From Acinetobacter phage Ab5: 64,000 nucleotides of DNA. Both the position numbers and the translations under genes were made by a program. Below, piece by piece: positions 6,010 through 48,843 of the stretch (position 1 is the first letter of the stretch; the number at the start of each line of letters is the position of its first letter). The DNA lies in sequence record PP763257.1. One strand, given 5' to 3'. The notes under the pieces were generated by a model. The model saw only the letters and a list, made by a program, of their open reading frames with translations, did no database searches and was not told the DNA's origin.

Positions 6010-7464
6010 ATGACTATATCGTTTAGTGAGACAGGGATTGTTGTCGACACACAAGAACAAATTAGAGACCAAATGGCAGCTAATGCTAAGGTTAACTTAG
6101 CTCCATTCTTAGGACAAACAGAATTAAAAACAGATGATTCTAGCGTTATTGGCAGGCACTTAGCAACTGTAGCAAGACCAGCAGCACAGAACGCTGAATT
6201 ACTGCAACCAATCTTAGATCAATTTGATCTTAATAAAGCACAAGGTGTGCAATTAGATAACATTCTCTGGAGAATTCACCGCATAAAACGAAAAGGATTG
6301 TCCCAAGCCGAAGGATTGCTCATGTTGTTTGGTGATGTCGGCACAGTTGTTTCAGAAGGTAGTGAGGTATCTAATAGTAAAACAGGTGATGTTTATTCTA
6401 TAAACAATGATGTCACTTTTAATGAAAACGACTGTAATGGTATTGAGATTGTTATATCTTCTGTAGGTGGAACATATACAATAAATTATTCTGTTAATGG
6501 TTTCTTATCAGAATCACCAAGTGTTGTCGTAACTACAGGTGTTAATGATACTACAATCCAACATATTGCAGATCGTATTGTAGATGCTGTTAATTCACAA
6601 ACTTCATATTTAACAGCTTCTAGAAATAATGATAACAGTGTAAAAATTATTATTACAGATCAAAACAATACTGGTGATTTTTCAGTAACAGGAAGTATCT
6701 CAATCGTAAGAGCTTACAAACCTGTTTATGCAACATCACAAACATATCAAGCTGCTGAAAGTAACGCTGGTGACGTTTCTGTTGTACGAACTACTGTATT
6801 AGGTTGGAGAGGTGTTACCAATCCTTTTGTTATTGCAGCATCACAAGGTGTTGAGGAAGACCCTGATTATCGTTACAGAGGTAATCTAATTAAAGGTAAT
6901 ACCAACACATCTTCTCGTAATTCTCTACTTGCAAGAATTGAAGCTGTTCGTGGGGTAAGTTTTTTAAGTATTCAAGCTAACAACACTCCAAATCCAACAG
7001 GGTCAGGAATTATAAATAATGGATTAGCAATCACTGTTCAAGGTGGTAATGAAGACGATATTGCAATTGCAATTGCTGATGCTATCGCAGATGGTATTGA
7101 AACATCTGGAACGATTACAAAAATCACTAAAGATAAAAACGGTGGTGATAAGATTGTTAGATTCTCAAGACCACAGACTGTTCCGTTGAAGATTTCAATG
7201 TCTATTACTATTGCTCCAAACTTCCCTACAAATGGTAAGAATTTAATTAAACAAGCTATTGTGGATTGGTTCAATGAATTGAATGTTGGTGATGATATTT
7301 ACTATTCTCGTCTATATGAACCAATTAACTCAATTTCTGGATTTAGTGTTCGTAATTTAAAGATTGGTAAATTAGACGGTAGTTATGTGACAGATGATAT
7401 TGTTCTTGGACACAATGAAGTAGCAACAATTAGTGCTGAAAATATATTCATTGGTGGTAGTTAA
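6010..7464 (+). CDS. baseplate J-like protein
   Basis: 484 aa. The N-terminal region (AQGVQLDNILWRIHRIKRKGLSQAEGLLMLFGDVGTVVSEGSEV) resembles the baseplate J family. Follows the W-like gene as in P2/Mu. Confidence 0.55.
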   Translation: MTISFSETGIVVDTQEQIRDQMAANAKVNLAPFLGQTELKTDDSSVIGRHLATVARPAAQNAELLQPILDQFDLNKAQGVQLDNILWRIHRIKRKGLSQAEGLLMLFGDVGTVVSEGSEVSNSKTGDVYSINNDVTFNENDCNGIEIVISSVGGTYTINYSVNGFLSESPSVVVTTGVNDTTIQHIADRIVDAVNSQTSYLTASRNNDNSVKIIITDQNNTGDFSVTGSISIVRAYKPVYATSQTYQAAESNAGDVSVVRTTVLGWRGVTNPFVIAASQGVEEDPDYRYRGNLIKGNTNTSSRNSLLARIEAVRGVSFLSIQANNTPNPTGSGIINNGLAITVQGGNEDDIAIAIADAIADGIETSGTITKITKDKNGGDKIVRFSRPQTVPLKISMSITIAPNFPTNGKNLIKQAIVDWFNELNVGDDIYYSRLYEPINSISGFSVRNLKIGKLDGSYVTDDIVLGHNEVATISAENIFIGGS

Positions 7465-13964: not shown

Positions 13965-14843
13965 GTGTTTAAAGGTTTAATTTCAGAAGTAGCAAAAGAT
14001 GCTGGTCGTAGTGCAGCATTAATCATTAATCAATTATTTCAATGGTATAAAGGAAGTAATTCAAAAAAGATTTACCGTACAAATCAAGAGTTACATGATG
14101 ATTTGTGTGGAATCATGTCTACAGCAACAATTCAACGTTGTAAAAAAAGATTGATTGAGAAAGGTTATATTGAAGTTTCTTTTGATAAAGGTTTGAATCG
14201 TGTAACTCACTATTCACTTACAAAGAAAGCTTTAGAATTATTGGATAGCTCTAAAACATCTTCAGAAGCCCGTAGTGAGAAAAAAGAAGGAAAAGGTAGT
14301 GGTGTACCACACACTCCTAAAACATCACCACAACGTGCTAAAACAGGTATTAAAAAGGGTGCTATTGTACACTCATACGGAAATGTCAAATCAATGAAGG
14401 AATGTTTTGAAGAAGGAAGTGATAACAAGAATGCAGATCGTTCTTTAACTCTATCTGAACGACTAGCTCTGATGAAAGGAGAAAAGATTGATTTAAACAA
14501 GCATAATGACGCTTTAGAGCAATGTTTAGATGAAAGTGGTACAAACGTACCAGACAACATTAAAAATGTCTCTATGGAGCTTATAGACAGCTTAAATGAG
14601 GTGTGTAGTGTTAATGAAGAAGATGAACATTTAAATGCTCTATCACAACATGATTACGATGAATGTGATCTTGCTATGTTGAATTCTTTGAATAAGCAAC
14701 AAGAACATTTGACAGATGATAAGTTGACTGTTGGTCAATTATTAGGTAATATTGGTTCTGTATATAAATCAGGTGTGTCAGAAGCTAGAGAAAGAATCTA
14801 TCAGATGTCACAATTACAAAATGGTTACTTGGAGGATTATTGA
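13965..14843 (+). CDS. putative DNA-binding protein (N-terminal winged-helix-like), first gene after the promoter
   Basis: GTG start 7 nt after AGGAGG. 292 aa. The N-terminal ~90 aa resemble a wHTH domain, and the rest is acidic/low-complexity. Confidence 0.5.
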   Translation: MFKGLISEVAKDAGRSAALIINQLFQWYKGSNSKKIYRTNQELHDDLCGIMSTATIQRCKKRLIEKGYIEVSFDKGLNRVTHYSLTKKALELLDSSKTSSEARSEKKEGKGSGVPHTPKTSPQRAKTGIKKGAIVHSYGNVKSMKECFEEGSDNKNADRSLTLSERLALMKGEKIDLNKHNDALEQCLDESGTNVPDNIKNVSMELIDSLNEVCSVNEEDEHLNALSQHDYDECDLAMLNSLNKQQEHLTDDKLTVGQLLGNIGSVYKSGVSEARERIYQMSQLQNGYLEDY

Positions 14844-18889: not shown

Positions 18890-18919
18890 AGGAGAATACG
18901 TTTGTATTTCTCCTTTTTC
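18890..18919 (+). terminator. possible imperfect terminator/attenuator upstream of the helicase-primase gene
   Basis: AGGAGAATACgtttGTATTTCTCCT (one bulge) followed by TTTTT. Confidence 0.3.
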
Positions 18920-18984
18920 TATTGGAGTTAAAATTGGCTTATTTCAAAAAGAACATTTCTAAAACAGGAGATTATGAAAATACC

Positions 18985-20652
18985 ATGAAAGAACGTGAAA
19001 GTGTAGAGGATATTCAAAATTATCCTTTTATTGCAAACCTAGAAAGAAAAATTTCATTAGAAACATGTAAAAGATTTGGTGTTCGTGCATCCCTAAGTGA
19101 AGTAGATGGAAAGACCGTTACAGCTTACTATTTTCCATCTAAAAATAGTAATGGTGAGATTACTGGATACATGAAGCAAGATGTAACTAAAAAGAAAGAA
19201 GAGGATGGTCATTGGTCTGCTGTTGGTAAGGTTTCAATATCTAATAAATTGTTTGGACAAGATGTTGCTGAATCAATTAATCGAAAGCATAATAGTATTA
19301 CAGTTACGGAAGGGCAGTGGGATTGCTTATCTGTTTATCAATCGCAGGTTAACAGCTTGAAAGATACGAAATACGAAGGTCATGAGCCTTTTGTTGTTTC
19401 TATCCCATTAGGAACTAAGAACGCTGTTGAATCTTTACTGCACAACAAAGATTTAATTAAATCTTTCGATTCAATGCTGGTTTTCTTCGACAATGATGAG
19501 GCAACCCCAGCAGAAAAGAAAAAAGGTGTGGTTAAAGGTAAGGAAGCTACGGAGAATGTTGCATCTGCATTTTTGTCTGATTTAAAGTTGTACTCTGTTT
19601 CTTTATCGCATGGTTATAAGGATGCTAGTGATTACCTTCAGGATAAGAAAGGTGTTTTCAAGAGTCTTAATGAAGCTGAAAAAGCATTAGCAAAGTTAGT
19701 TCAGTTTGAGAGAACTCCACTTGTTGCTGAGAAGATTGCTCATGTCGACTCTATCTCACTTGACGAGTTGTGTGAACCTATTCCACTTGGTATTGAGATT
19801 AAAAGCTTCCCCAAGTTATCTGAAATGTTGTATGGTTGGAGAACAGGTGAATTGACTGTTGTTACCGCTAGGAGTGGTGCAGGTAAGACAACAGGGATGA
19901 CTAAAATCGCTGAAGATGCGATTGATGCTGGAGAAAAACTTGGTTTAATTTACTTAGAGGAAAAAAACAAGCAAACACTACAACGCTTTGTTTCTTCTCA
20001 GTTAAAGGTAAGCTATAAGAAATTCAAGAGAAACCCATTATCTGTTGCAACTAAGGAAGCTATCGAAAGTGTTTACAATAGATTGAAGGATAACAAACAG
20101 ATTGTTATGCTTGATCATTTTGGCAGTATGCCGATTAAGGAATTAATGAACAAGATTAAGCATATGTATTTTGTTGAGGGTTGCAGATACATTTTAATTG
20201 ATCACTTATCGATGGTAATTTCTGGAAGTGAGTTAACTGATGAGCGAAAAGAGATTGATATTGTTATGACAGAAATCGCTGCTTTTTGTGCAGCTAATGA
20301 TGTTGCTGTCATGTTGGTTGTTCACTTGAACAGACAAGGTAGTGCTGCAATACAACCACCTAAAGGAAAAGAGGATGAACCTTTCTGGGTTCAGGTTACA
20401 AAGGAAACAATGCGTGGTTCAGGTTCGCTTGAACAGATTGCATGGAATGTACTCGGTCTTGAACAAGAAATTTTACCCAACCGAAAACGAGGTCGTGTCC
20501 GTTGGGTTGTTTTAAAGAATCGTGAAGGTGGTGATCTTGGTGTTGCAGATACATTTAAACTAAACGAAGAAGATTGGTCTGTTATACACTATGAAGACGA
20601 GGATGAGGGAAATTGCGTTAATCCAGACGAAAATAAACCTCTCCCTTTCTAG
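18985..20652 (+). CDS. bifunctional DNA primase (TOPRIM) / DnaB-family replicative helicase
   Basis: TOPRIM motifs (VTEGQWD ... VFFDNDE) at the N-terminus. Walker A TARSGAGKTT, Walker B ILIDHLS and a RecA-like helicase core at the C-terminus. Acidic C-terminus ending LPF. The track start at 18922 is TTG with no RBS, so the in-frame ATG at 18985 is used; the true start is uncertain. Confidence 0.85.
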   Translation: MKERESVEDIQNYPFIANLERKISLETCKRFGVRASLSEVDGKTVTAYYFPSKNSNGEITGYMKQDVTKKKEEDGHWSAVGKVSISNKLFGQDVAESINRKHNSITVTEGQWDCLSVYQSQVNSLKDTKYEGHEPFVVSIPLGTKNAVESLLHNKDLIKSFDSMLVFFDNDEATPAEKKKGVVKGKEATENVASAFLSDLKLYSVSLSHGYKDASDYLQDKKGVFKSLNEAEKALAKLVQFERTPLVAEKIAHVDSISLDELCEPIPLGIEIKSFPKLSEMLYGWRTGELTVVTARSGAGKTTGMTKIAEDAIDAGEKLGLIYLEEKNKQTLQRFVSSQLKVSYKKFKRNPLSVATKEAIESVYNRLKDNKQIVMLDHFGSMPIKELMNKIKHMYFVEGCRYILIDHLSMVISGSELTDERKEIDIVMTEIAAFCAANDVAVMLVVHLNRQGSAAIQPPKGKEDEPFWVQVTKETMRGSGSLEQIAWNVLGLEQEILPNRKRGRVRWVVLKNREGGDLGVADTFKLNEEDWSVIHYEDEDEGNCVNPDENKPLPF

Positions 20653-20709
20653 TTTGAGGGCTTGCGCCCTCTTTTTGAATTTGTTATAATTTATTTTTAA
20701 GGATGGATT

Positions 20710-23085
20710 ATGCTTTTAAAAAGACGTTTAGTTGTTGATATTGAAACAAATAACATCCTATCAGAGATGTTAGATTTTTCTATTTTACCTTACAAGTTAA
20801 AAAACAATAGTAATCTTTGGTGTGTAGTATTTCGAGATATTGATACAGACGAGGTTTTTCACCAATCGTTATCTGGAATTACAAAAGATTGGGTTGAGTC
20901 TGTAGTTAAAGGTAGTACCGAAATTATTGCACACAACGGAATAAAATTTGACTTTGTTGTTTTAAAATTATTTGGTGTGTTTGACTACGAAATAGGTTAT
21001 TTAGAAAAGCCCGATCTATTATTTGGAAAAGAGGTAAAGTTTACAGATACTTTAGTTAGATCACGATTATTTAATCCTGATCGCTACGGTGGACACAGCT
21101 TGCAAGCTTGGGGTGAGAGACTAGGAGACTATAAAGATGATTTCAGACAAAAAAGTATTGAAGCTGGAATAATTAAATCAGACTCTCCTAAAGGTTCTGA
21201 GTTTCAGCAATACTCTGAAATCATGTTAGACTACTGTATTCAGGATACGAAAGTTACGGCAGAGGTTTACAAAAGTTTAGAAGAAGAGTGGAATTCGTAT
21301 TCTGGTTGGGTTAAACCAGAAAAGCTTGAAAATAAACTAGCAGACTTAGCTATTCGTAGAGAGTGTTATGGATTTTGGTTTGATAAAGATTTAGCTATTA
21401 AGTGCTTAGACGACTTAACGGAAAAGATGGATAAATTACGCAGTAACGTAAACCCTCTTCTTCCACCAAAACCTTTAACAAAGACAAGATTAAAAGAGTT
21501 TACGCCACCTACTAAACAATTCAAACAGGATGGAACATATAATGCTCACTTAATTAATTTTGCAAAGAAGCATAATGCAATTTTAAAAGACAGAGTGTTT
21601 ATCTATAAAGGGAGAGAGTACGATCTACCATTAACCGAGCCTTTAGAGATTGTGGAAGAAGCAGATATCTCTGACCTAGACCATGTTAAAATGCATTTGA
21701 TAAATCTTGGTTGGAACCCTACAGAGTTTAAGGTTAGGGATTTAACAAAGAACCATAAAAAACAGTCTATACCTTATGAGAAGAGACATAAAGCTTTATT
21801 GACGTGGCTGGAGCAAACTTTCGAGGAGGGTAAATACAAGGAACATCGGCTTAAAGAATTGGGAATGTATGATAAAGTTGAGATTTATAAAAAACTATCT
21901 CAACAGATTAAATCTGATAAGCCTGTCAGAGTTCCTACATCTCCTTGCGTTAGGGTCGGTATTGAAAAGGAGCTTTGCCCAAACTTAGTAAAATTAGGAG
22001 ATAAGGTTGCTTTCGCAAAAGACTTTACATTGTATTTAACTTATAAGCATCGTAAAAGTAGTATTGCAGGTGGTGATATTGAGGATTTGGACTTTGATGA
22101 AGAATATCCTAACACAGGTTTTTTATCAATGTATCGAGAAGAAGACCAGCGAGTATCAACTCCTTCTATAGAGATTGGTGCATCAACAAATCGTTACAGA
22201 CATATCGGCATATGTAATATTGCGCGTGCATCGTCAATTTACGGAAAAGAGATGCGTTCGCTGTTTGGTTGTGGGGAGGGAAAAAGACAACTAGGTTTTG
22301 ACTTTTCAAGCCTAGAAGCTCGAATTCAAGGGCATTACATTTTGCCTTTTAATGGTGAAGAGTTGGCTCAACAATTACTTGCTTCAAAACCTAATGACAT
22401 TCACTCTATTAATGCTAGAAAATTTGACATGCCACGAGATTTAGCAAAATCTTTAGGGTATATGTTGATGTATGGCGGTTCAGCAGCAAGAGCAAAAAGT
22501 ATGCTTGGGTGTTCTATGGTAGAAGCTAAGAGAATTGTTGATGGGTTTTGGGACGAAATGAAACCGTTGAAAGACCTTAAAGATGCTGTAACTAAAGCTT
22601 GGGAGAAGCGTGGAAAGAAATACGTTATTGGTGTTGACGGTCGAAAATTAGTTACAAGATCGGCACATTCTTTACTAAACGTTTTGTTTCAGTCTGGAGG
22701 TGTTATTTGTGCTAAATATACAACAGTATTTATGTATGAAGAGTTGGAGAGCAAGGGGTACAAGTGCAATCCGTTTGAGTCTGATGTTGACTTTATCTCA
22801 ATGATAGAATACCATGACGAATGCCAAACTGCGATTAACAAAGATGATGTTGAACTTAAAGTTTTTAAAGATGAAGAATCTATGAACGAGTTTGTGGAAT
22901 CTTGGAGTGGTGATCAACTCGGTAGCCCTGTTGAGTTGGAAAACGGAATGTATGTTGTGGCTCTTCCAAATGATGTATCAAGATCAATTCAGCATAGTAT
23001 TGATCGTGCTGTAGAAGAGGTAGGTTTGAAAGTTCCACTTGCAATGGAATGGGTTGTTGCGAATAACTGGTATTTATGCCATTAA
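20710..23085 (+). CDS. family A DNA polymerase with N-terminal 3'-5' proofreading exonuclease
   Basis: Exo I motif VVDIETNN. Pol A motif A FDFSSLEARI, motif B RDLAKSLGYMLMYGG, motif C EYHDEC. 791 aa. Confidence 0.9.
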   Translation: MLLKRRLVVDIETNNILSEMLDFSILPYKLKNNSNLWCVVFRDIDTDEVFHQSLSGITKDWVESVVKGSTEIIAHNGIKFDFVVLKLFGVFDYEIGYLEKPDLLFGKEVKFTDTLVRSRLFNPDRYGGHSLQAWGERLGDYKDDFRQKSIEAGIIKSDSPKGSEFQQYSEIMLDYCIQDTKVTAEVYKSLEEEWNSYSGWVKPEKLENKLADLAIRRECYGFWFDKDLAIKCLDDLTEKMDKLRSNVNPLLPPKPLTKTRLKEFTPPTKQFKQDGTYNAHLINFAKKHNAILKDRVFIYKGREYDLPLTEPLEIVEEADISDLDHVKMHLINLGWNPTEFKVRDLTKNHKKQSIPYEKRHKALLTWLEQTFEEGKYKEHRLKELGMYDKVEIYKKLSQQIKSDKPVRVPTSPCVRVGIEKELCPNLVKLGDKVAFAKDFTLYLTYKHRKSSIAGGDIEDLDFDEEYPNTGFLSMYREEDQRVSTPSIEIGASTNRYRHIGICNIARASSIYGKEMRSLFGCGEGKRQLGFDFSSLEARIQGHYILPFNGEELAQQLLASKPNDIHSINARKFDMPRDLAKSLGYMLMYGGSAARAKSMLGCSMVEAKRIVDGFWDEMKPLKDLKDAVTKAWEKRGKKYVIGVDGRKLVTRSAHSLLNVLFQSGGVICAKYTTVFMYEELESKGYKCNPFESDVDFISMIEYHDECQTAINKDDVELKVFKDEESMNEFVESWSGDQLGSPVELENGMYVVALPNDVSRSIQHSIDRAVEEVGLKVPLAMEWVVANNWYLCH

Positions 23086-23103
23086 TTTAATTAGGAGATG
23101 TAA

Positions 23104-24417
23104 ATGTTGAAGTTTAAAAAAGGTGATGAGGTTATTGTTACTGGTTTTATTAATTCTCGTGCTGAAGAGCTTGGTACTTTAGGTGAGGTTGGTATTGTTG
23201 AGGTTGCGGATGATTCAGAGATTCCATATTTTGTAAAACTAAAATCTGTTACAGGAGGTTCTGGTGGATTATGGTTTAAGGAGGAGAATTTAAAATCAGC
23301 TAAAGGAAGCACTTTTTACAAAGGTGTTGTATATTCTGTTGGAGATGTTATTGAGCGTTTGGATGATTGTCCTTATCCACTAGGATCAAAACATACGATT
23401 ATTGCGATTGGAAACGGAGGAGTTTATGCTAAGGATACTGAAGGTAGTGTTGGTTTTCATTGTTTGGGTTTTGTTAAGAAAGTAATTGAAGATAAAGAGG
23501 AAGATATGAATAATTTTGAAAAACACAACCCTGAACTTAAAATCGGTGATGAGGTTTTAATTCTAGAACATCCTGTATTGAAACATGACGAAGGAATTAA
23601 GTACCCTGAATCAATGCAAAAAGAAATTGGATCAAAACAAATTATTACTGAAGTTCACGAATTTGGATATCGACTGTCGAATCATTGGAGTTATGAAGCC
23701 AAATATTTGCAGAAAGTTACTAATGATATTGATAAATCACAACTTCTTAAACAAGAAATTGAAGTTGGAGATTTGGCGGTATTAATTTCTCTTGATAATA
23801 CAGTAAGAGAGTATGGTGCTAATGAGTCAATGAAAAAAGTTGGAGAAGCGTTTATTGTAAAACTTGTTTATAATGATGAAGAAGATGATTTAATTGAGAT
23901 TTTTGATGAATGTAGTTGGTCATATGATCATCGTGATTTAGTAATTTTGCAGAAAGCTTCAGATATGAAAGAGCGTAAATTAGCTCCTGTTGATTTGAAA
24001 TTACACACTCACACTTCTTTCGATGCATCTACTACTGGTGAAGCTGATGATTTTGGAGATTTTGACATTTCACCAGATGATTTAAAAGGTATGGTTGATG
24101 ACATGATTAGTCACCCTATCCAACCTATTGAGTCAAATGGTGGAAGTAGTGATTATTATTTTACTGAATTACCGAAATGGTTGATTGATCAAATTGTAGA
24201 AACTGGTGGTATTGAAGTTAAAGATATTGTTCAATTTGTATTTGATAATGATGCTCATGCAAAAGATATCATCAAGGCACAGAAACGTATTATTGAGCAG
24301 CGTAAAGGTGGTGGTAAAGCTGGATTAAAACCACTGTACGATTACAACAAGATTGTATTCTTCGCTGAAGATCAGTTGAGGGTTGCTAAGAACAATCTTG
24401 ATGAGAAATCTGAATAG
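23104..24417 (+). CDS. hypothetical protein with three internal repeats
   Basis: 437 aa. The unit (K/I)GDEV(I/L)(V/I) + ~40 aa recurs at residues ~6, ~146 and ~213. The C-terminal half is acidic. Confidence 0.5.
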   Translation: MLKFKKGDEVIVTGFINSRAEELGTLGEVGIVEVADDSEIPYFVKLKSVTGGSGGLWFKEENLKSAKGSTFYKGVVYSVGDVIERLDDCPYPLGSKHTIIAIGNGGVYAKDTEGSVGFHCLGFVKKVIEDKEEDMNNFEKHNPELKIGDEVLILEHPVLKHDEGIKYPESMQKEIGSKQIITEVHEFGYRLSNHWSYEAKYLQKVTNDIDKSQLLKQEIEVGDLAVLISLDNTVREYGANESMKKVGEAFIVKLVYNDEEDDLIEIFDECSWSYDHRDLVILQKASDMKERKLAPVDLKLHTHTSFDASTTGEADDFGDFDISPDDLKGMVDDMISHPIQPIESNGGSSDYYFTELPKWLIDQIVETGGIEVKDIVQFVFDNDAHAKDIIKAQKRIIEQRKGGGKAGLKPLYDYNKIVFFAEDQLRVAKNNLDEKSE

Positions 24418-24443
24418 CTTTACATTTAATTACAGTATTGTTG

Positions 24444-24472
24444 TTGACATTGAATTATAAGTTTGCAATAAT
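24444..24472 (+). promoter_or_regulatory. putative promoter
   Basis: TTGACA at 24444-24449, a 17-nt spacer, then AATAAT. Confidence 0.4.
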
Positions 24473-24659
24473 ACTCACCTACTCTGATGAATATTCGTAT
24501 ATTACTTCGGAGCTATAAAAGCGTTAAAAAGCTCAAAACATTTTAGATTTCTTTTAATAGAATTTCTAATTATGTTTTGAGTTGTTTGTATTTAAAAATT
24601 TAATTAAGTATGTGTCAATCGGCACATTATATAATAAGCATATACGATAGGAGATACAA

Positions 24660-25298
24660 ATGTCAATTAAGACTAATATTAATTTTGAATCAGGAATTAT
24701 TGAAAACGCAGTATTGTTTTACACTAAGTTAAAGAATCCACCATTAAAATACGGTTCTCAAACTGAACGTGAATACACTGTGGATGTTGTTGTTGATAAA
24801 TCTTCAGCAAAAGCTTGGAATAAGCAATTCGGAAAACAGAAGGCTAAGGAAATTGACAATGCAGATTTCACAGAGCAATTTAAGACTGATCCAGTGTTTC
24901 CAGATCAAGATGAACAGTTTGTGATTAAACTAAAAAAACCAGCTCAGTACACGGACAAGGCAACAGGTGAATTAGTACCTTTGAATGAAAAATATATTCC
25001 TCGTGTGTTCATTAAAAACGATGAGGGTACTTTGGAGGATATTACATTCACAACTAACATTGGTAATGGTAGTGTTGGTGTTGTTCAGTTTGATGTGAAT
25101 GAAAACTCTTTCGGTACGTTTGCTAAACTTGGTGCAATTCGTGTTGATAACCTTGTTGCTGTAGAACACAAAGGTGGTGCAAACTACGATGTTCTTGGTA
25201 CTGTTAAAACTCTAGCTGAAATTCCAACAGCAGCTAAGAAAGAACCAGAATCAACACAGCCTCAACATGTAGATGAAGACGATTCATTACCTTTCTGA
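24660..25298 (+). CDS. putative single-stranded DNA-binding protein (T7 gp2.5-like)
   Basis: 212 aa. Acidic C-terminal tail ending DEDDSLPF with a terminal Phe, as in gp2.5-type SSBs. Located between the polymerase and the FEN gene. No canonical OB-fold SSB motifs were checked. Confidence 0.45.
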   Translation: MSIKTNINFESGIIENAVLFYTKLKNPPLKYGSQTEREYTVDVVVDKSSAKAWNKQFGKQKAKEIDNADFTEQFKTDPVFPDQDEQFVIKLKKPAQYTDKATGELVPLNEKYIPRVFIKNDEGTLEDITFTTNIGNGSVGVVQFDVNENSFGTFAKLGAIRVDNLVAVEHKGGANYDVLGTVKTLAEIPTAAKKEPESTQPQHVDEDDSLPF

Positions 25299-25310
25299 TC
25301 TTTAACACTT

Positions 25311-25345
25311 GGAAGGACTTAATGTCCTTCCCTTATAATTTATAT
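25311..25345 (+). terminator. terminator hairpin after the SSB-like gene
   Basis: GGAAGGACttaatGTCCTTCC followed by a T-rich tract. Confidence 0.5.
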
Positions 25346-25359
25346 TTAGGAGAAAATAA

Positions 25360-25515
25360 ATGACAAAGAAAATTAAAATTGGTGTTCTAGAATTAGATAT
25401 GGGTAATCTTTCAGATATGATTTATGTTAATACAAAGAACCAACAACAATTAGCCACAGCGCTTCAGTTTGCAGCATACCAAGCAACATTTGAAAAGAAA
25501 CGAGGTGTTAAATGA
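25360..25515 (+). CDS. hypothetical small protein (51 aa)
   Basis: GGAGAA RBS. Below the ORF-track cutoff. Confidence 0.35.
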   Translation: MTKKIKIGVLELDMGNLSDMIYVNTKNQQQLATALQFAAYQATFEKKRGVK

Positions 25516-26762: not shown

Positions 26763-27698
26763 ATGAATAAGATAGAGGATTATGACTTTAGTAAATTTGA
26801 CTACAATAAGAAATACCACTTACACATTGATTTCGACACTCCAATCTTCGCTAATGCTGCTGTGGTTAGTAAAGATATGTGTCAAGTTGAGCATAAAACT
26901 TCAGGAAGAAAGAAAACTTACAAGAACTTTGATGAGTTTAGTAACTGGTTGAATCTTCCTGAAAATTTTATGTATAAGTTATCTGATTTTAACGTACCTG
27001 TTATTGGTTTTGCTATATATGGTTTAAACAAACAACTTAAAGAGATGGTGTCTCATGGTTGGGTTGGTGATTACACTTTGTACGTTGGTGGTGATACAAA
27101 CTTCAGAAAAGACTTATATCCAGAATACAAAGGAAATAGGTCTAAGTCACCAGCAATGAGGAAGGTGTTATTTAATTATGTTGTTTCCAAGTATAAAGAC
27201 AAAGTGGTTGTGAGCGATGGTGAGGAAGCAGAGGATACTTGTTTGTCAAAAGTTTTAGAAGATATTGACAGTAATGTTTGCGGATATTGTGATAAAGACT
27301 TAACAACTCAGTCAGCATACTTCTTTAATTACAAGAAACAGGAGAAGGGTGTATTTTTTATTGATGAAAAAAAAGCTTTTTTCAATCTTTGTTGTCAGTT
27401 GTTGCATGGTGACTCTACCGACAACATATTTGGAATTAATTTTATTACTGACGAATTGAGACAAGCTTTTAAAATTAAAACAAAATCTATAGGTGCTGCA
27501 ACAGCAGAAAAACTCCTTGATGATGTTAAACACGATGTTTCCTTAATGAAGGAAAGAATTGTAAATATATATCAACTATCATATGGAGATTCTTGGAAGG
27601 AGAATTTACAATTTACAGGAAGTTTGGTTTTTATTAGTAAACGACAAAGAGAGTATTTTGACGTGGAAATTTTCTTAAAAGGAGTTGAGTATGAATAG
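26763..27698 (+). CDS. 5'-3' exonuclease / flap endonuclease (FEN, RNase H-like)
   Basis: The segment LYVGGDTNFRKDLYPEYKGNR matches the conserved NFR..L.P.YKANR motif of Pol I-type 5' nucleases. Confidence 0.7.
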   Translation: MNKIEDYDFSKFDYNKKYHLHIDFDTPIFANAAVVSKDMCQVEHKTSGRKKTYKNFDEFSNWLNLPENFMYKLSDFNVPVIGFAIYGLNKQLKEMVSHGWVGDYTLYVGGDTNFRKDLYPEYKGNRSKSPAMRKVLFNYVVSKYKDKVVVSDGEEAEDTCLSKVLEDIDSNVCGYCDKDLTTQSAYFFNYKKQEKGVFFIDEKKAFFNLCCQLLHGDSTDNIFGINFITDELRQAFKIKTKSIGAATAEKLLDDVKHDVSLMKERIVNIYQLSYGDSWKENLQFTGSLVFISKRQREYFDVEIFLKGVEYE

Positions 27699-27864
27699 TT
27701 ATAGTTTTGAGATTAAGTGTCGATTAACTTTTGATGATATGCAAGCTACAAGTTACAAGAAAGCTTTAAGTGCTATTGAAAAGTATTTGAACCATTGTCA
27801 ATTCGATTATGAAATTATTGATATTGATTGTCAGGAAAGATTGGAAAACGAAGATGAGTCCTGA
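27691..27864 (+). CDS. hypothetical small protein (57 aa)
   Basis: GGAG RBS. Overlaps the FEN stop. Confidence 0.35.
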   Translation: MNSYSFEIKCRLTFDDMQATSYKKALSAIEKYLNHCQFDYEIIDIDCQERLENEDES

Positions 27865-28429
27865 TGAAAAGATCAAAAAAATCCTTTCCGAAAATAAAGA
27901 TATATGGAAAACAGAATCATCTTATTTCTCTTATCTTCGCGGATGTATTCGTCTTGCTTGGAATAAGAATCCTGTTAAACTAAAACTTTTAAAGAAGATT
28001 AAAAAGCAAATTCCAAACCCTAATTACGGTAAACCTCGGAATACTAAACCTACAGTTTTTGGAGGAACTTGTGAAATTTGTAAAAATGATTTTCCAATGA
28101 AATTTTTAGAGGTTGATCATAAAGACGGTGGGGTTTATTCGTTGAAGAAGGTTGAGGATATTCAGGATTTCTTTGTTAATATTTGTATTGTTTGTGAAGA
28201 TGATCTTAGGGTTGTCTGCAAGGATTGTCATTCGTGTTTATCTTATAGTGCAAAACATAATTGTTCTTTTGAAGAAGCAAGAACTCAAAAAGAATTCATT
28301 GAGATAAAAAAACAAAAGAAAGTGGTTGACAAACTTATTAGCTTGGGTGTAAACTCAATACCTAAGTTAAAGAAAGATCAAGAATCTTTATTGTTATCGT
28401 TGATGCTAGGAGAGGTTAATGAAAATTAG
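27854..28429 (+). CDS. HNH endonuclease
   Basis: CEICKNDF ... EVDHKDG ... CKDCHSC is an HNH zinc/His-Me finger. Start placed at ATG 27854; the track start at 27809 overlaps the preceding small ORF. Confidence 0.6.
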   Translation: MSPDEKIKKILSENKDIWKTESSYFSYLRGCIRLAWNKNPVKLKLLKKIKKQIPNPNYGKPRNTKPTVFGGTCEICKNDFPMKFLEVDHKDGGVYSLKKVEDIQDFFVNICIVCEDDLRVVCKDCHSCLSYSAKHNCSFEEARTQKEFIEIKKQKKVVDKLISLGVNSIPKLKKDQESLLLSLMLGEVNEN

Positions 28430-29772: not shown

Positions 29773-29946
29773 ATGAAAGTTTATGTACATGCAAGTTACC
29801 TAGTAACTGAAACATTTCCGATTGAAGTGGATGAAGAAAGTGAGATTAGAGATAAGGCTTGGTCACTTGCTTATGACTTAACACATAAGTACGATGTTGA
29901 AGATATTTATGATGTTGATTGGGAAATCATTGAGGAGGATGAATGA
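29773..29946 (+). CDS. small protein (57 aa) of the recurrent ExxEA family
   Basis: GGAGAG RBS. MKVYVHASY...IEVDEESEIRDKAWSLA. Below the ORF-track cutoff. Confidence 0.4.
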   Translation: MKVYVHASYLVTETFPIEVDEESEIRDKAWSLAYDLTHKYDVEDIYDVDWEIIEEDE

Positions 29947-30692
29947 AGGGTGGTGATCTAATAAACACTATTCTTCCATCAAATAACTGTGGTGATTTTA
30001 TGATTTTAGAATATGAAAATTCTAGGAGAGTTAAAGTTAGATTTTTAAAAACAGGTTATGAGTGTGTCTCATCTTTACGAAATTTGAAATTAGGTCAAGT
30101 GAAAGATAGAATGTTACCTTCTGTTTTTGGGGTTGGATTTCTTGGTGATGCGCCAACTAAGATTGATTCTTTGATATTGAGGGAATATTCTATATGGGTT
30201 CAGATGCTTCGTAGATGTTATTCTTTGGTTGATAGATCAAAATACCCCTCTTATGAAAATTGTAGTGTATCTGATTATTTTTTGAATTATTCTAATTTTA
30301 GTAGCTGGTGTAATAAACAGATTGGTTTTGGTAATCAAGGTTGGCACTTAGATAAAGACTTGTTAGTAAAAGGTAATAAAGTTTATAGTGAAGAAACGTG
30401 TATTTTCTTACCCCAAGAGTTAAACTCTTTAGTGATAAGAAACAACTCTTGTCGTGGGAAGTATCCAATTGGTGTTAGTTTCAACAAAGACTCTTCAAAA
30501 TTTATGTCGCAGTTAAGTATGTCTTTTGAAACAAAATATATTGGTTATTACAACACACCTGAAGAAGCTTTCTATGCTTATAAAGAAGCTAAAGAAGCCT
30601 TTATTAAAGAACAGGCTAAGAAGTGGAAAGATAAGATTGACCCTAGAGCTTGCGAAGCTTTGATGAATTATGAGGTAGATATTAATGATTAG
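29943..30692 (+). CDS. HNH-AP2 type homing endonuclease (paralogue 1 of 3)
   Basis: C-terminal GYYNTPEEAFYAYKEAKEAF is an AP2-type DNA-binding domain. The central region is conserved with the ORFs at 44983 (+) and 51550 (-). Confidence 0.65.
   Translation: MKGGDLINTILPSNNCGDFMILEYENSRRVKVRFLKTGYECVSSLRNLKLGQVKDRMLPSVFGVGFLGDAPTKIDSLILREYSIWVQMLRRCYSLVDRSKYPSYENCSVSDYFLNYSNFSSWCNKQIGFGNQGWHLDKDLLVKGNKVYSEETCIFLPQELNSLVIRNNSCRGKYPIGVSFNKDSSKFMSQLSMSFETKYIGYYNTPEEAFYAYKEAKEAFIKEQAKKWKDKIDPRACEALMNYEVDIND
30541..30692 (+). repeat. dispersed DNA repeat copy A (3' end of HNH-AP2 gene)
   Basis: About 150 nt with high nucleotide identity to 45619-45771. Confidence 0.5.
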
Positions 30693-30706
30693 TGAGGATA
30701 AATAAC

Positions 30707-31708
30707 GTGGGAAAAATTACTAATGAAGATTGGAAACAGAAAGCTTTAGATTATCGCAAGCAGGGTTTATCCTCTCGTAAGATTTGTGATAAGTTGGGAT
30801 GGAGTCGAACTAAGAAAAGTACGATAAATTATTTCTTCGAACGTCATGATCGTGAACAACAAGCTGTAGATGCGTTGTTTAAATCAGCACAAGAAGAACC
30901 AAGTGTTAAGATTCTTTATTTGGATTTGGAATACACATTCTCTTTCTCAGGACATTTTCAGAATTGGGGTGTTAATATTTCACAGGATGCCAAGATTCGT
31001 GAAAGTCATTTACTTTCTTACGCATACGCTTGGAATAACGGAGAAGTTAAGGGTGAGGTTTTAAAGGCTGAAGCTATTCAGAACGACTTACTACGATCTA
31101 TTGTTCAGAATGATGTTAAAACAGATATTGATTTTGATATGACATTAAAGCTTTGGCATTTGTTAGATCAATGTGATATTGCTATCGCACATAATTCAAG
31201 AGGTTATGACATTAAGCAAATGAATTCATTGTTTTTAAAATACAACTTACCACTACCTTCTCCGTATAAGGTTGTTGACACTTTAGCAATTGCTAAGAAG
31301 ATGTTTAAACTTCCATTTAAGAGTTTGAAATACTTAGCTCAATATTTGAATGTTACACAGAAGATTGACAATGGTGGTAACGAGTTTTGGCGTTTGGCTT
31401 CAATTGGTTATTCTGATGAAGTTTTAAATGAAATGCTCACTTATAATAAAGGTGACATTGAAACGTTACGTGAAGTTTATTTGAAATTAAGGATGTATAA
31501 TAATGATGGGGTTAATGTTGCTGCATTTGATGGTGGTGATGAGGTACGATGTCCTACTTGCTCTTCTACTGACTTATCTAAGTTAAACAAGCAAGCTACA
31601 ACTACACGACATCAATATGATGTTTATCGTTGTAATCACTGTCAAGCTTTAAGTCGTTCAGCAAACGTTAAAGGTGAAGCTAAATATTTGGTTCATGTGA
31701 GTGGTTGA
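30707..31708 (+). CDS. DEDDy-type 3'-5' exonuclease with N-terminal HTH and C-terminal Zn ribbon
   Basis: Exo I ILYLDLEYTF, Exo II IAHNSRGYDIKQM, Exo III YNKGDIETL. The N-terminal LSSRKICDKLGWSRTK is HTH-like. C-terminal CPTCSS...CNHCQ. GTG start at 30707 after GAGGAT. Confidence 0.6.
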   Translation: MGKITNEDWKQKALDYRKQGLSSRKICDKLGWSRTKKSTINYFFERHDREQQAVDALFKSAQEEPSVKILYLDLEYTFSFSGHFQNWGVNISQDAKIRESHLLSYAYAWNNGEVKGEVLKAEAIQNDLLRSIVQNDVKTDIDFDMTLKLWHLLDQCDIAIAHNSRGYDIKQMNSLFLKYNLPLPSPYKVVDTLAIAKKMFKLPFKSLKYLAQYLNVTQKIDNGGNEFWRLASIGYSDEVLNEMLTYNKGDIETLREVYLKLRMYNNDGVNVAAFDGGDEVRCPTCSSTDLSKLNKQATTTRHQYDVYRCNHCQALSRSANVKGEAKYLVHVSG

Positions 31709-32287: not shown

Positions 32288-32364
32288 GGGCTGTTCGTCT
32301 AATTGGATAAGACATCATAATTCTAGTGTGATTGATGCAGGTTCGAATCCTGTGCAGCCTGCCA
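32288..32364 (+). tRNA. tRNA-Arg (anticodon UCU)
   Basis: Hand-folded cloverleaf. Acceptor stem GGGCTGT/GCAGCCT (two G-U pairs). D-arm GTCT-AATTGGATA-AGAC. Anticodon arm TCATA-ATTCTAG-TGTGA with U33 and A37. 5-nt variable loop. T-arm GCAGG-TTCGAAT-CCTGT. Encoded GCCA 3' end. Confidence 0.75.
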
Positions 32365-40634: not shown

Positions 40635-41150
40635 ATGTATAAAGACAAGAAAATTATTCAAATTGTTGCTAGAGGTTTGAAAGGTGAAATCGGTAAAGAC
40701 AACAAACTCCTGTGGAGTATTCCTGAAGAATTGAAATACTTCCGTGATCAAACATTGGGGCATGTTGTGATGATGGGTCGTAAAACATATGAGAGTTTAC
40801 CTAAACCTTTAGGTCGCAGGGTTGTGTATAGTGTATCAAGACCTAAAGATGTGGATGATTATGACTTGCTAGACTACTTCCACGATGCTTATAAAACCAC
40901 TACTACGATGCTTAATACAGATTGTATTTTTGTTGCGGGAGGTAGTCAACTGTATGAAGCTACATCAGATATTGTAGATGAACTTCTTATTACGGAAGTT
41001 GACAAGGAGTATCATGATGCTGATGTATATTTTAAGCAACCCGATGGTTTTGAGATGACTGATAGATCAGAATGGACTGAAGGTATTGACCGTTTAAGTG
41101 GTGATATTATACGTTATCGCTTCACAACATGGCATCGTTTACCATTTTAA
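40635..41150 (+). CDS. folA: dihydrofolate reductase
   Basis: IQIVARGLKGEIGKDNKLLWSIPEELKYFRDQTLGHVVMMGRKTYESLP matches the DHFR N-terminal signature. Confidence 0.8.
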   Translation: MYKDKKIIQIVARGLKGEIGKDNKLLWSIPEELKYFRDQTLGHVVMMGRKTYESLPKPLGRRVVYSVSRPKDVDDYDLLDYFHDAYKTTTTMLNTDCIFVAGGSQLYEATSDIVDELLITEVDKEYHDADVYFKQPDGFEMTDRSEWTEGIDRLSGDIIRYRFTTWHRLPF

Positions 41151-44759: not shown

Positions 44760-44986
44760 TGATTAATAAAAAACAATTAATACATGATTGGTCATTACTG
44801 AGGGTAGGTGATGTGTTTAAATCCTACCATTCAGGAAGTACATATATTGTCACTGATGTCACTGAACATTATGTACAATTTAAGTATGTGAGTAATCCGA
44901 TTAAATATTTATTTGTTATATCATTGGAAATTGAGGTGTTTGATGGTTTTAAATTTGAAAAATTAAATAAGGAGGATTTTAATTGA
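44759..44986 (+). CDS. hypothetical protein
   Basis: 75 aa. Confidence 0.45.
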   Translation: MINKKQLIHDWSLLRVGDVFKSYHSGSTYIVTDVTEHYVQFKYVSNPIKYLFVISLEIEVFDGFKFEKLNKEDFN

Positions 44987-45771
44987 AATATGTTAATAAC
45001 ATAGACCATAAAGATTGTGTTGGAAAATTATGTAAATCTAAAAATTCTGGTGATTTTATTATTACTAAGTATCATGACCATAAACATGTTGAGGTTGAAT
45101 TTTTATTGAGTGGTTATGAAACTGTGAAACAATTAACTCACATTAAAAATGGTGAAGTAAGAGACCCTTATTGTCCTTCTGTTTATGGGGTGGGTATAAC
45201 AGGAGACAAATTTCCAATACATGAAAAGATTAACGCTAAGGAAAGGGTATTTACTCTACAATACAATACATGGCATTCTATGCTAGCTAGATGTTATAGC
45301 GACAAGTTTTTACTAAATAATCCAACATATACAGGTTGCTCTGTATCTGAAAACTTCAAACACTACGAATACTTTTATGAATGGTGTAACGAACAAGTAG
45401 GTTTTAAAAATGAAGGTTGGAATTTAGATAAAGACCTTTTAATTAAAGGTAATAAAATATACTCTGAAGATACTTGTGTTTTCTTACCAAGAGAATTAAA
45501 TCTGTTGTTAATAAACAATGGTGTATCAAGGGGAGACCTCCCAATAGGTGTTAGTTATCATGTTAGAAATAAAAAGTTTCAAGCAAACATTAACTTAAAC
45601 ACAGGTCGCACAAAAAGCTTAGGTTACTACAACACACCTGAAGAAGCTTTCTATACTTACAAAGAAGCTAAAGAAGATTTTATTAAAGAACAAGCTAATA
45701 AATGGAAAGATCAAATTGATCCTAGAGCTTTTGAAGCTTTGATGAATTATGAGGTAGATATTAATGATTGA
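44983..45771 (+). CDS. HNH-AP2 type homing endonuclease (paralogue 2 of 3)
   Basis: Collinear similarity with the 29943 ORF throughout. C-terminal GYYNTPEEAFYTYKEAKEDFIKEQ AP2-like domain. Confidence 0.65.
   Translation: MKYVNNIDHKDCVGKLCKSKNSGDFIITKYHDHKHVEVEFLLSGYETVKQLTHIKNGEVRDPYCPSVYGVGITGDKFPIHEKINAKERVFTLQYNTWHSMLARCYSDKFLLNNPTYTGCSVSENFKHYEYFYEWCNEQVGFKNEGWNLDKDLLIKGNKIYSEDTCVFLPRELNLLLINNGVSRGDLPIGVSYHVRNKKFQANINLNTGRTKSLGYYNTPEEAFYTYKEAKEDFIKEQANKWKDQIDPRAFEALMNYEVDIND
45619..45771 (+). repeat. dispersed DNA repeat copy B (3' end of HNH-AP2 gene)
   Basis: About 150 nt with high nucleotide identity to 30541-30692. Confidence 0.5.
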
Positions 45772-46089: not shown

Positions 46090-46830
46090 TTAAAGTAATT
46101 CAATAAACTTACTTAACACTCTTTTTAATTCTGTATTGCTTAATTCACGAGTTTTCTCTCGTCCTTCTAATAGTTCATTTTTTAAACCATTAATATAACT
46201 AGAACAAGCAACGGTATTATCTGAAGTATAACCTTTAGTGTCATCAATACGATCGATAGAGTGGCTATGTTTACCTTCCATAGTCAATGTGATACCAGAA
46301 TAGTAACACTTCTTACGAGACAATAAGCGTTTCATATCAGCAAATGTTAAAGAAAATTCAATTCCTCTTTGGGCACACTGAATACTCTTATGTAATAATT
46401 TAAGACTAACATAAGTGTCAAATTTAACTTGGTTAAGCTCATTATCAATTCCTGTGAAAGCATCGTTAACGTTTCTAAGATCAATGTTGTAATCAATGTT
46501 ATAACCTTTGCGGTTGAATATACATAATGTTTTAGTTTCACATAACATATCGTATGGAGATTTTATTTCTGTAATTATCTTAATTCCATTTTCTGTTGTT
46601 ATATCTGATAATGAAATTATATCATTTAAACACAGAGCCATTAAGATACTATTATACTCTTCTACAAACATCGATTTTAAGGTGTGTATCGAGCGCTTAC
46701 AGGCATAATCAGATACGAAGTGATTAAACGTATAGGTTAAACATTTGGATGCCTTAGTGGTGAGCTTAGGCATGTCTGTGAAAGCACATAATTCAGAGAC
46801 AGTAGATTGTTTATTAAAATCGAACGACAT
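46090..46830 (-). CDS. HNH homing endonuclease (HNH_3-like)
   Basis: The C-terminal HSIDRIDDTKGYTSDNTVACSSYINGLKN matches the HNH_3 core (H.IDRI...GY..DN). 246 aa. Confidence 0.6.
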   Translation of the reverse strand: MSFDFNKQSTVSELCAFTDMPKLTTKASKCLTYTFNHFVSDYACKRSIHTLKSMFVEEYNSILMALCLNDIISLSDITTENGIKIITEIKSPYDMLCETKTLCIFNRKGYNIDYNIDLRNVNDAFTGIDNELNQVKFDTYVSLKLLHKSIQCAQRGIEFSLTFADMKRLLSRKKCYYSGITLTMEGKHSHSIDRIDDTKGYTSDNTVACSSYINGLKNELLEGREKTRELSNTELKRVLSKFIELL

Positions 46831-46889
46831 ATCAAATTCCTTGTGTAATAAAAAAGAGAGCTATAACTTTCGTTATGCTCTCTAGTATA

Positions 46890-47096
46890 TTAAGGAATTA
46901 AGTTTTTGATGTCAATCTCATTCAATTCATTTAATTGAAATTCTTCAGACCAATAAGTCACAATACAATTTTTATGCATCTCAGAGAATTCTCTCATAGC
47001 CTGTTGTTGTTCCATAACATCACTAAATATTCCAACTATAACGTTATAGTCAAAACACAGGTACGAAACTTTTGCTGAAAGTAAAACTAAATCCAT
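46890..47096 (-). CDS. hypothetical protein
   Basis: 68 aa. Confidence 0.45.
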   Translation of the reverse strand: MDLVLLSAKVSYLCFDYNVIVGIFSDVMEQQQAMREFSEMHKNCIVTYWSEEFQLNELNEIDIKNLIP

Positions 47097-47104
47097 ATTC
47101 TCTC

Positions 47105-47452
47105 CTAAAGTGAAAACTTGTCAATAAAATTACGATGGGTTCTGTGACTGCCAAGATAAACTAAATTATCAATACCGTTTAAGTTAAGCATTACCCCCTC
47201 TCCAAGATATAGTCGTTCTGCTAAAAATTGGGTGTCATTAGCATCTAAACTTCCATGTCTATTAATCATGGCATCAAGACGATTTTTTATCTTTAGAATA
47301 AATAGACCAACACTACATTCGTAATTTATAAAATCTAACCCTATCCCTTCCCACCTTAGTTGAACAGTATTTGGATTATCCCAACTAGCGGGTCCGTTGT
47401 TTTTGTAATATCCTTTATTTAAAACAACAAATTCGTCTAAATTAATTTCCAT
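47105..47452 (-). CDS. hypothetical protein
   Basis: 115 aa. Confidence 0.5.
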   Translation of the reverse strand: MEINLDEFVVLNKGYYKNNGPASWDNPNTVQLRWEGIGLDFINYECSVGLFILKIKNRLDAMINRHGSLDANDTQFLAERLYLGEGVMLNLNGIDNLVYLGSHRTHRNFIDKFSL

Positions 47453-47460
47453 AATCTCTC

Positions 47461-47679
47461 CTAAGACATAAAAAATTTAAAAACCCAAAAGTCAAAAGTG
47501 TACGCAATAAAGAACATCATAAACAACAACTGCATCACAATAGAACCAATGATCTTTTTTAATGTTGATGATTGTTCAACATCTTCTTTAGTTAAGTTAT
47601 TGCGTACAACACCTAATGCAACTATCGAAGGGAATGCTGATACAATAAATAAACCAATCACAAAAATAATTATTTCCAT
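47461..47679 (-). CDS. small membrane protein
   Basis: 72 aa with two hydrophobic helices. Confidence 0.45.
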   Translation of the reverse strand: MEIIIFVIGLFIVSAFPSIVALGVVRNNLTKEDVEQSSTLKKIIGSIVMQLLFMMFFIAYTFDFWVFKFFMS

Positions 47680-47843
47680 TAGTCCTCCAATAGTCTTAAC
47701 AACTCAACAAGTGCTGTTTCGTAGTAAGAGTATTTTTCCCATTGTAAGTTATTACCTACTTCGATTTGATAATAACCAGTATTACCAACAGCTAATATCT
47801 TATACCATTGACCTTTGTGACTTCCACAATATTTAATAATCAT
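47679..47843 (-). CDS. hypothetical small protein (54 aa)
   Basis: Minus-strand ORF MIIKYCGSHKGQWYKILAVGNTGYYQIEVGNNLQWEKYSYYETALVELLRLLED with a GAGGAGA RBS 5 nt upstream. Its TAA overlaps the next ATG. Not in the ORF track. Confidence 0.45.
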   Translation of the reverse strand: MIIKYCGSHKGQWYKILAVGNTGYYQIEVGNNLQWEKYSYYETALVELLRLLED

Positions 47844-47855
47844 TTGTTTATCTCC

Positions 47856-48816: not shown

Positions 48817-48843
48817 AATGTCTCTCCTTTGTTTAAAATAAAT

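Follow-up and report, generated by a model that had tools for sequence, protein, structure and literature searches.

Do the replication proteins of Acinetobacter phage Ab5 hold on to their DNA polymerase in the same way as those of bacteriophage T7? [quoted passage not shown] The DNA analysed here, which we call the window, is a stretch of 64,000 nucleotides from the Ab5 record PP763257.1, and it encodes a primase-helicase, a DNA polymerase and a predicted SSB close to one another. A preliminary description, made from the sequence alone, pointed out that the helicase and the SSB both end in LPF, and suggested that this shared ending serves to dock both of them on the polymerase. The analysis described here indicates that docking of the T7 type is probable (we would put it at roughly 60%), with acidic, Phe-ended tails contacting basic patches on the polymerase, the contacts themselves being what we infer. 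The shared LPF, however, is not the signal.

A T7-like replication module

The helicase, polymerase and SSB of the window belong to the same three families and folds as gp4, gp5 and gp2.5 of T7, and the description of the module as T7-like is therefore borne out. The helicase matches phrog_239 (E = 6e-126, over profile positions 105-607 of 801), the DnaB_C domain PF03796 (E = 6e-24) and T7 gp4 (PDB 6n7i, E = 3.5e-29), and its Walker A motif, SGAGKT, aligns with SGMGKS of T7. The polymerase is recognised by PF00476 (E = 5e-12) and phrog_17 (E = 4.5e-101), and among PDB sequences T7 gp5 is the sole match (E = 8e-30). Its AlphaFold2 (AF2) model has a predicted local distance difference test score (pLDDT) of 81. 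The top 27 Foldseek matches to this model are all T7 gp5, the match to 6p7e (E = 2e-27) being ten orders of magnitude better than that to the Klenow fragment (1e-17). In the exonuclease domain, VVDIET aligns with VSDIEA of T7, and the HDE motif is present.

The SSB could only be identified by comparison of folds, because a search of its sequence against the PDB gave noise only. At the level of sequence, the 212-residue open reading frame (ORF) at 24660-25298 matches phrog_112, 'gp2.5-like', with E = 3e-5, and a search against Pfam gave no match to an SSB family. The AF2 model, built on 65 homologues, has a mean pLDDT of 86.9, with values of 92-98 over residues 1-160; it consists of a β-rich core (residues 1-165) and is disordered from residue 171. 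When the model was compared with the PDB using Foldseek, T7 gp2.5 came first (1je5, E = 6e-7, probability 1.00), followed by the SSB of phage Enc34 (5odj, E = 1e-5) and then by DUF2815 (4klk). The TM-scores are modest (0.42-0.53), as is to be expected in a divergent family. Bacterial SSB structures reach only E = 0.17 (1ue6), against 6e-7 for gp2.5. Since the predicted structure contains an OB fold, the ORF is predicted to be a gp2.5-type SSB, which agrees with the gp2.5-like character originally given to it. Public annotations of this protein in Acinetobacter relatives read 'hypothetical' or 'uncharacterised'.

The module also differs from that of T7 in several respects. Compared with gp5, the window polymerase is 87 residues longer and has additional insertions, which follow the thumb and lie close to the C-terminus. 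The window belongs to a group of Acinetobacter myoviruses with genomes of about 92 kb, whereas T7 is a 40-kb podovirus. The gene order is also different, being primase-helicase, family A polymerase, a 437-residue protein and SSB, all on the + strand, with a 5'-3' exonuclease and an HNH endonuclease downstream.

Two acidic tails and their conservation

Both proteins end exactly as had been quoted, the helicase in ...YEDEDEGNCVNPDENKPLPF (tail peptide EDEDEGNCVNPDENKPLPF) and the SSB in ...QHVDEDDSLPF. Both tails are acidic, with seven acidic residues among the last 20 of the helicase and six among the last 20 of the SSB (...KKEPESTQPQHVDEDDSLPF). On composition, the expected frequency of LPF is about 1e-4 for each C-terminus. 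The window has 110 non-overlapping ORFs, of which five end in F, and three of these in LPF. The third LPF terminus, ...WHRLPF, belongs to DHFR (40635-41150; PF00186, E = 1e-34); this one lacks acidity, and its LPF is probably a coincidence. The significance of the two tails therefore rests on their homologues: the terminal Phe is nearly invariant in both families, and the matching last three residues are not conserved.

When the C-termini of the homologues were compared, 118 of 120 helicases were found to have a terminal F; 42 end in GF and 29 in PF, six of these in LPF. The helicase tips fall into the classes ...DDDPELGF, ...[DE]x[IL]PF and ...[DE]x[DE]F, and a subset ends in ...DDDEIPF or ...DDGDDDIPF. 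Among 120 close homologues of the SSB, 78 end in F (68 in PF, 19 in LPF) and 27 in W. The terminal Phe and the acidity of the tails are thus conserved, but LPF as such is not. A profile search with the SSB against 1.8 billion cluster representatives found 478 members; 95 of the 137 full-length representatives (50%-identity clusters) among the best 150 end in PF, several of them in exactly DFDDDIPF, which is the C-terminal motif of E. coli SSB (PMC5872125). Some relatives of the SSB (P0007-P0040, P0101-P0109, L045, L063, L096 and L097) have an internal ...DDDIPF, so that the PF is not at the free C-terminus. These proteins continue with a second tail (...GDTQSDDAW) or with a hydrophobic extension (...MRISDRLLMII).

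In 160 related loci from viral contigs, each helicase was paired with the SSB from its own contig, which gave 31 distinct pairs having a helicase of the window type, without a zinc-binding domain (zinc-less). The helicase ends in F in 30 of these pairs and the SSB in PF in 26, with F on both proteins in 25. PF is found on both proteins only in the window and in its near-identical relative, Acinetobacter phage MD-2021a, and these are also the only two pairs with the same last three residues on both. In a typical pair, a helicase ending in ...QEVPEDF is accompanied by an SSB ending in ...DDSDSLPF. Where the helicase ends in ...EIPF (L105, L164 and L167), the SSB ends in ...DDSEW, ...NEDDQW or ...DDDDDF. 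Taking these three loci together with L165 and L166, a helicase ending in ...[DE][IL]PF goes with an SSB or adjoining acidic-tailed protein that ends in ...W, ...DDDDDF or ...DDDWD, and not in PF. The PF tip thus tends to be on one protein or the other (raw counts 1/3/24/4; Fisher p = 0.025, calculated ignoring shared ancestry and on few lineages), and mutual exclusion of the tip between helicase and SSB is to be taken as a lead only.

With PF on both proteins confined to the window and MD-2021a, a shared LPF does not work as the signal. Because both families allow an xPF ending, the simplest explanation of the identical tips is that two tail classes happen to coincide in this lineage; they are not a recognition code. 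The conserved determinants are the terminal Phe and the acidity. The terminal Phe is the docking feature that was already known, and every T7-type SSB has been noted to have an acidic tail (PMC5686142); what sets the window lineage apart is that its two tails match exactly.

Basic surfaces on the polymerase

If the tails dock on the polymerase, it should be possible to find surfaces that would receive them. In T7, the front basic patch of gp5, K587-W-K-R-R591, binds the gp4 tail peptide DTDF (PDB 6P7E) and also the gp2.5 tail (PMC12339929). The sequence WEKRGKK (residues 631-637) of the window polymerase aligns with T7 KWKRRWIK, and hence with the front-patch residues K587/K589/R590/R591. In 36 homologues R634 is invariant and two to four basic residues are retained, the other positions being K, S or Q. 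On this alignment, the window polymerase has a predicted counterpart of the front basic patch. The thumb contains an insertion that is similar in length to, and aligned with, the thioredoxin-binding domain of T7 gp5 (T7 residues 262-338). Its Lys-rich loop has two Lys residues that do not vary in the same 36 homologues (K254 and K258) and two that hardly vary (K262 and K272).

We therefore suggest the following mechanism. The negative charge of the tails, together with the terminal Phe, would dock transiently on basic surfaces of the polymerase, namely the KRGKK cluster at the position of the front basic patch and the Lys-rich thumb insertion. Docking would keep the polymerase at the fork, and would help it to displace the SSB. 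In addition, the tail of the SSB probably folds back into the cleft in which the protein binds DNA; in both gp2.5 and the Enc34 SSB the tail sits in the DNA-binding groove of the protein itself (PMC5686142). The T7 tails, as read from NC_001604, end in ...SNDTDF (gp4) and ...DEDGDF (gp2.5), and differ from those of the window in having a D-x-D-F tip in place of x-L-P-F. The proposal that the window uses the docking logic of T7 thus holds for the protein families, the acidic Phe-ended tails and the basic cluster. It does not hold for LPF as the signal, and the tip of the SSB is independent of the polymerase or helicase that adjoins it.

Recombinants and a possible matching of tails to polymerases

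Natural recombinants provide a further view of how tails and polymerases are associated. In vB_AbaM_B9 (locus L002, 1795-7000), blastn homology to the window ends at 18937 and returns at 23087, the helicase and polymerase being exchanged as a unit. B9 differs from the window in having a zinc-bearing primase-helicase, which ends in ...ESSFDW, an endonuclease-like protein of the T5orf172 type and a polymerase of family B. The latter, annotated 'hypothetical protein', matches archaeal PolB and E. coli Pol II weakly but consistently. In the metagenomic relative L161, the sequence is 98% identical to the window as far as 20635, which leaves five codons to the helicase stop, and homology resumes at 22977. 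Here the helicase tail reads ...NPDENIAPKNSITIPHEGYPEF, and is followed by a different PolA of 668 residues and a T5orf172 endonuclease. As this breakpoint is inside the helicase tail, the tip of the tail and the polymerase gene have been exchanged together, while the rest of the helicase has been retained. Downstream of the endonuclease gene, L161 has a 108-nucleotide remnant of the 3' end of a window-type polymerase (6540-6650, corresponding to window 22977-23085), which suggests that the window-type arrangement is the older. The helicase tip has thus changed along with the polymerase in both recombinants, in B9 as part of the whole helicase gene, and this is consistent with a matching of helicase and polymerase.

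A number of observations weigh on the other side. The breakpoint in L161 may merely mark the end of sequence homology. The idea that the type of helicase tail tracks the type of polymerase was considered and ruled out, there being no one-to-one relation. The tip of the window helicase, ENKPLPF, contains a Lys, has no acidic residues adjoining the PF, and is less acidic than the tips of its relatives. The SSB is the same in the window, B9 and L161 (...DED(D/E)(S/N)LPF) despite three different polymerases, these being the 791-residue PolA, the 668-residue PolA and the PolB. Finally, in the metagenomic loci a PF-ended SSB is found alongside both types of primase-helicase, zinc-less and zinc-bearing, each of them combined with a polymerase of family A as well as of family B. 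The tip of the SSB is thus generic, and has not been tuned to the window polymerase.

Host partners as an alternative

In its sequence, the SSB tip corresponds to the C-terminal motif of bacterial SSBs rather than to the D-x-D-F of T7. Since it is also independent of the adjacent polymerase, we only infer that the T7-like polymerase is the partner of the SSB tail. A tentative alternative, to which we give clearly less weight, is that -[ILV]PF tips copy the bacterial SSB motif DDDIPF, and mainly engage host SSB-interacting proteins or compete with the host SSB. The candidates would be Pol III chi, DnaG primase, PriA, RecQ, ExoI and RNase HI. Such a role would be compatible with T7-type docking.

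The resemblance on which this alternative is based is that a disordered SSB tail ends in a stretch of acidic residues and then [IL]-P-F, seen as DEDDSLPF in the window and as DFDDDIPF in relatives. PF ends predominate both in the gp2.5-fold representatives (95/137) and in the closer homologues (68/120), and the tip is retained whatever polymerase or helicase adjoins it. Moreover, some helicases carry ...DDDEIPF or ...DDGDDDIPF. It is documented that bacterial SSB docks on chi and DnaG through DDDIPF (PMC5872125, PMC3632105, PMC3045619), and there is a precedent in a non-canonical phage SSB-like protein with FDDDIPF, which has been linked to host ExoI (bioRxiv 10.64898/2026.04.29.721553). The window SSB differs from bacterial SSBs in its core, which is a gp2.5-type OB fold and not the bacterial SSB fold, and the window phage differs from bacteria in carrying the motif on its replicative helicase as well. 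The tail of the Acinetobacter host SSB presumably ends in DDDIPF; a literature search for this tail gave nothing usable. Two points count against host partners. The window helicase, with no acidic residues beside its PF, matches the D-D-D-[IL]-P-F pattern only partly. In addition, a PF tip also suits docking on the polymerase, as in T7 the E. coli SSB tail can stand in for that of gp2.5.

An extension of this idea, which we regard as speculative and rather unlikely, is that -[IL]PF is a portable mimic of the host SSB C-terminus, placed on the SSB or on the zinc-less helicase, and rarely on both, in this large group of phages of about 80-100 kb. If true, it would mean that the phage replisome plugs into the host SSB network (for example chi/Pol III, ExoI, PriA and DnaG primase), and that the window lineage is exceptional in having the tip on both proteins.

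It is improbable that the tails are simply generic acidic disordered ends which match in LPF by coincidence, with the SSB tail being only an autoinhibitory mimic of single-stranded DNA and no specific partner being shared: it is true that LPF occurs in 6/120 helicase and 19/120 SSB homologues, so that joint occurrence is not rare where both allow xPF, that the last three residues agree in no more than two of the 31 pairs, those of the window and MD-2021a, that DHFR also ends in LPF, and that the Enc34 SSB and gp2.5 tails occupy their own DNA-binding grooves (PMC5686142), but a last residue that is nearly invariant (F in 118/120 helicases, F or W in 105/120 SSBs) would be unexpected for a purely electrostatic tail without a partner, and in the cited T7 literature the terminal Phe is required for interaction with the polymerase. 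Docking of the T7 type, through the terminal Phe and the acidity of the tails, thus remains our preferred reading.

A primase without a zinc-binding domain

The absence of an N-terminal zinc-binding CxxC module from the primase, already noticed in the preliminary description, is confirmed. The match to the phrog_239 profile begins only at position 105 of 801, and the N-terminus aligns with residue 54-64 or thereabouts of T7 gp4 (NC_001604), which is the start of the short form gp4B (Met64). No CxxC is present in the first 80 residues of the window helicase, nor in those of any of its 120 closest homologues. The gene had been taken to start at ATG 18985, which is in frame but probably internal. 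TTG 18934 is the more likely start, having GGAG 6 nucleotides upstream and giving an N-terminus, MAYFKK, that agrees with the M[SGA]YFKK of homologues. Neither of these starts adds a zinc module.

The TOPRIM acids E109, D169/D171 and D213 (numbered from ATG 18985) correspond to E157, D207/D209 and D237 of T7 gp4, and are invariant in 19 members of the family. The match to Pfam Toprim_2 is below threshold (18.4 bits, with a cut-off of 22.1). Since the catalytic acids are all present and invariant, the primase centre looks functional as judged from the alignment, though the template-recognition domain is absent. The window protein thus resembles the 56-kDa gp4B of T7 and metazoan Twinkle (PMC9860392, PMC3610141), which are gp4-type primase-helicases without a functional zinc-binding domain. 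It differs from Twinkle in that the four TOPRIM catalytic acids are all invariant in the window family. It differs from T7, in which gp4 is made in a long form (gp4A) and a short one (gp4B), in that no member of the window subfamily has the zinc-binding domain, and the window phage encodes no long form.

No upstream ORF was found that could supply the zinc domain. A separate zinc-ribbon protein was considered as a substitute: the only candidates with Cys4-type motifs are the HNH endonuclease at 27809-28429 and the exonuclease-like protein at 30692-31708. The latter is not a compensation for the missing domain, as B9 has it too, although the B9 primase comes with a zinc finger of its own. The possibility that the PF tip of the SSB compensates for the missing domain was likewise rejected, as 14 of the 23 distinct pairs with the other type of helicase have both a zinc motif and a PF-ended SSB.

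Many helicase homologues of about 900 residues (P0172, P0191-P0229) contain intein/homing-endonuclease insertions (PF05203/PF05204/PF14528), as do many polymerase homologues of about 1090-1240 residues (P0250, P0283, P0290 and P0332; PF07591/PF14890). Both genes are free of inteins in the window.

Relatives and gene organisation

The positions of the features are collected in Table 1. Over the region 18900-25400, MD-2021a is 93.6% identical across the whole module, and has the same tails. The right-hand third of this region is 87-92% identical to B9, TaPaz, Ab3-TPeters and phiAB441, all of which have the SSB and its flanking genes in common with the window (SSB nucleotide identity 89-92%). When TaPaz, Ab3-TPeters and phiAB441 were compared over the module, their matches were limited to the SSB-side portion, as in B9. 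A gene that constantly accompanies the SSB would be a candidate for a common partner; co-occurrence counts obtained with single-sequence phmmer were uninformative on this.

Table 1 Positions of features in the replication module and its surroundings (window numbering)
Feature	Position	Strand	Basis or remark
Helicase and polymerase cassette, exchanged as a unit in vB_AbaM_B9	18938..23086	+	blastn
Primase-helicase, T7 gp4-like, equivalent of short form gp4B (start more likely TTG)	18934..20652	+	phrog_239, PF03796, PDB 6n7i
RNA-polymerase/TOPRIM part of primase	18985..19675	+	Alignment with T7 gp4; no zinc-binding domain ahead
TOPRIM acid E109	19309-19311	+	Numbering from ATG 18985
TOPRIM acids D169/D171	19489-19497	+	Numbering from ATG 18985
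TOPRIM acid D213	19621-19623	+	Numbering from ATG 18985
SF4 (DnaB/gp4-type) helicase domain	19789..20574	+	PF03796, residues 274-516; T7 gp4 helicase domain, residues 269-548
Helicase C-terminal tail, ending ...YEDEDEGNCVNPDENKPLPF	20590..20649	+	Read directly; stop at 20650-20652
Segment replaced in metagenomic relative L161	20636..22976	+	Last 5 helicase codons, intergenic region, most of polymerase gene
Terminator-like hairpin and T-run directly 3' of helicase stop	20656..20671	+	GAGGGCTTGCGCCCTC then TTTTTGAATT
Family A DNA polymerase, T7 gp5 type, 791 residues, with 3'-5' exonuclease domain	20710..23085	+	PF00476, phrog_17
Thumb insertion (about residues 245-322), Lys-rich loop PPKPLTKTRLKEFTPPTKQFK	21442..21675	+	MAFFT alignment with T7 gp5
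Basic cluster W631-E-K-R-G-K-K637	22600..22620	+	phmmer and MAFFT; opposite T7 gp5 front basic patch
437-residue protein between polymerase and SSB	23104..24417	+	Sole match phrog_4521, C-terminus, E = 9e-22
Promoter-like site before SSB gene	24444..24472	+	TTGACA-17-AATAAT with TG, 11/12 matches
OB-fold core of predicted gp2.5-type SSB, residues 1-170	24660..25169	+	phrog_112, AF2, Foldseek
Disordered C-terminal SSB tail, ending ...QHVDEDDSLPF	25170..25295	+	pLDDT 46-59 from residue 171
Terminator-like hairpin after SSB gene	25311..25331	+	Sequence
5'-3' exonuclease, downstream of SSB	26763-27698	+

The 437-residue protein has a C-terminal part that is mosaic among relatives. Nothing in MD-2021a corresponds to window 24005-24419, its protein ending in DUF3310 instead, and the B9 version keeps the window's C-terminus but is missing an internal segment. 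The B9 homologue carries the annotation 'DNA polymerase', a label that looks wrong. The promoter-like site before the SSB gene is weak evidence, since the total number of such sites in the region equals that expected from shuffled sequence.

Several other genes of the window may be connected with replication. For a 292-residue protein (13965-14843), a Pfam search gave no match, and the PHROG families that it matches weakly (E = 6e-10 to 4e-7) are those of replication initiation and DnaD-like helicase loaders; these matches make it a candidate for binding the origin or loading the helicase of the module. The exonuclease-like gene at 30692-31708 encodes a DnaQ/RNase H-like 'polymerase exonuclease subunit' of 338 residues (phrog_403, E = 1e-74) with a C-terminal zinc ribbon (CPTC...CNHC), and is present although the polymerase has an exonuclease domain of its own. 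Its homologue in B9 is labelled 'DNA polymerase II'. Three HNH endonuclease genes are scattered across the replication and nucleotide-metabolism region. Two of them are paralogues (29943-30692 and 44983-45771; phrog_953, E about 1e-71 to 1e-73), and the third, at 27809-28429, belongs to phrog_1985. All three are likely to be homing endonucleases, in keeping with the mosaicism observed. A lone tRNA-Arg (anticodon TCT, 32288-32364) has the exonuclease-like gene on one side and, on the other, a gene for a MazG-like pyrophosphatase. The sign of the GC skew is reversed from about 46 kb to about 60 kb, coinciding with a block of minus-strand genes at 46090-59487.

Implications

A limited literature search found no description of a bacterial-type DFDDDIPF tip as a systematic feature of a gp2.5-fold SSB family, or of a tip of this type on a replicative helicase. 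The same search found no description of a large subfamily of zinc-less, catalytically intact gp4 proteins, nor of a recombination junction at which a tail is exchanged together with a polymerase.

This group of phages offers natural swap experiments, in which one SSB tail is found beside three polymerases, and a helicase tip has been exchanged with the polymerase in one recombinant. The existence of hundreds of primase-helicases that have no zinc finger but have an intact catalytic centre raises the question of how priming sites get chosen. If it is true that the -PF tips engage partners of the host SSB, this would be a widespread route by which phages tap or block host DNA-repair and replication factors, and it would be relevant to Acinetobacter phage therapy and to the defence systems that sense phage SSBs.

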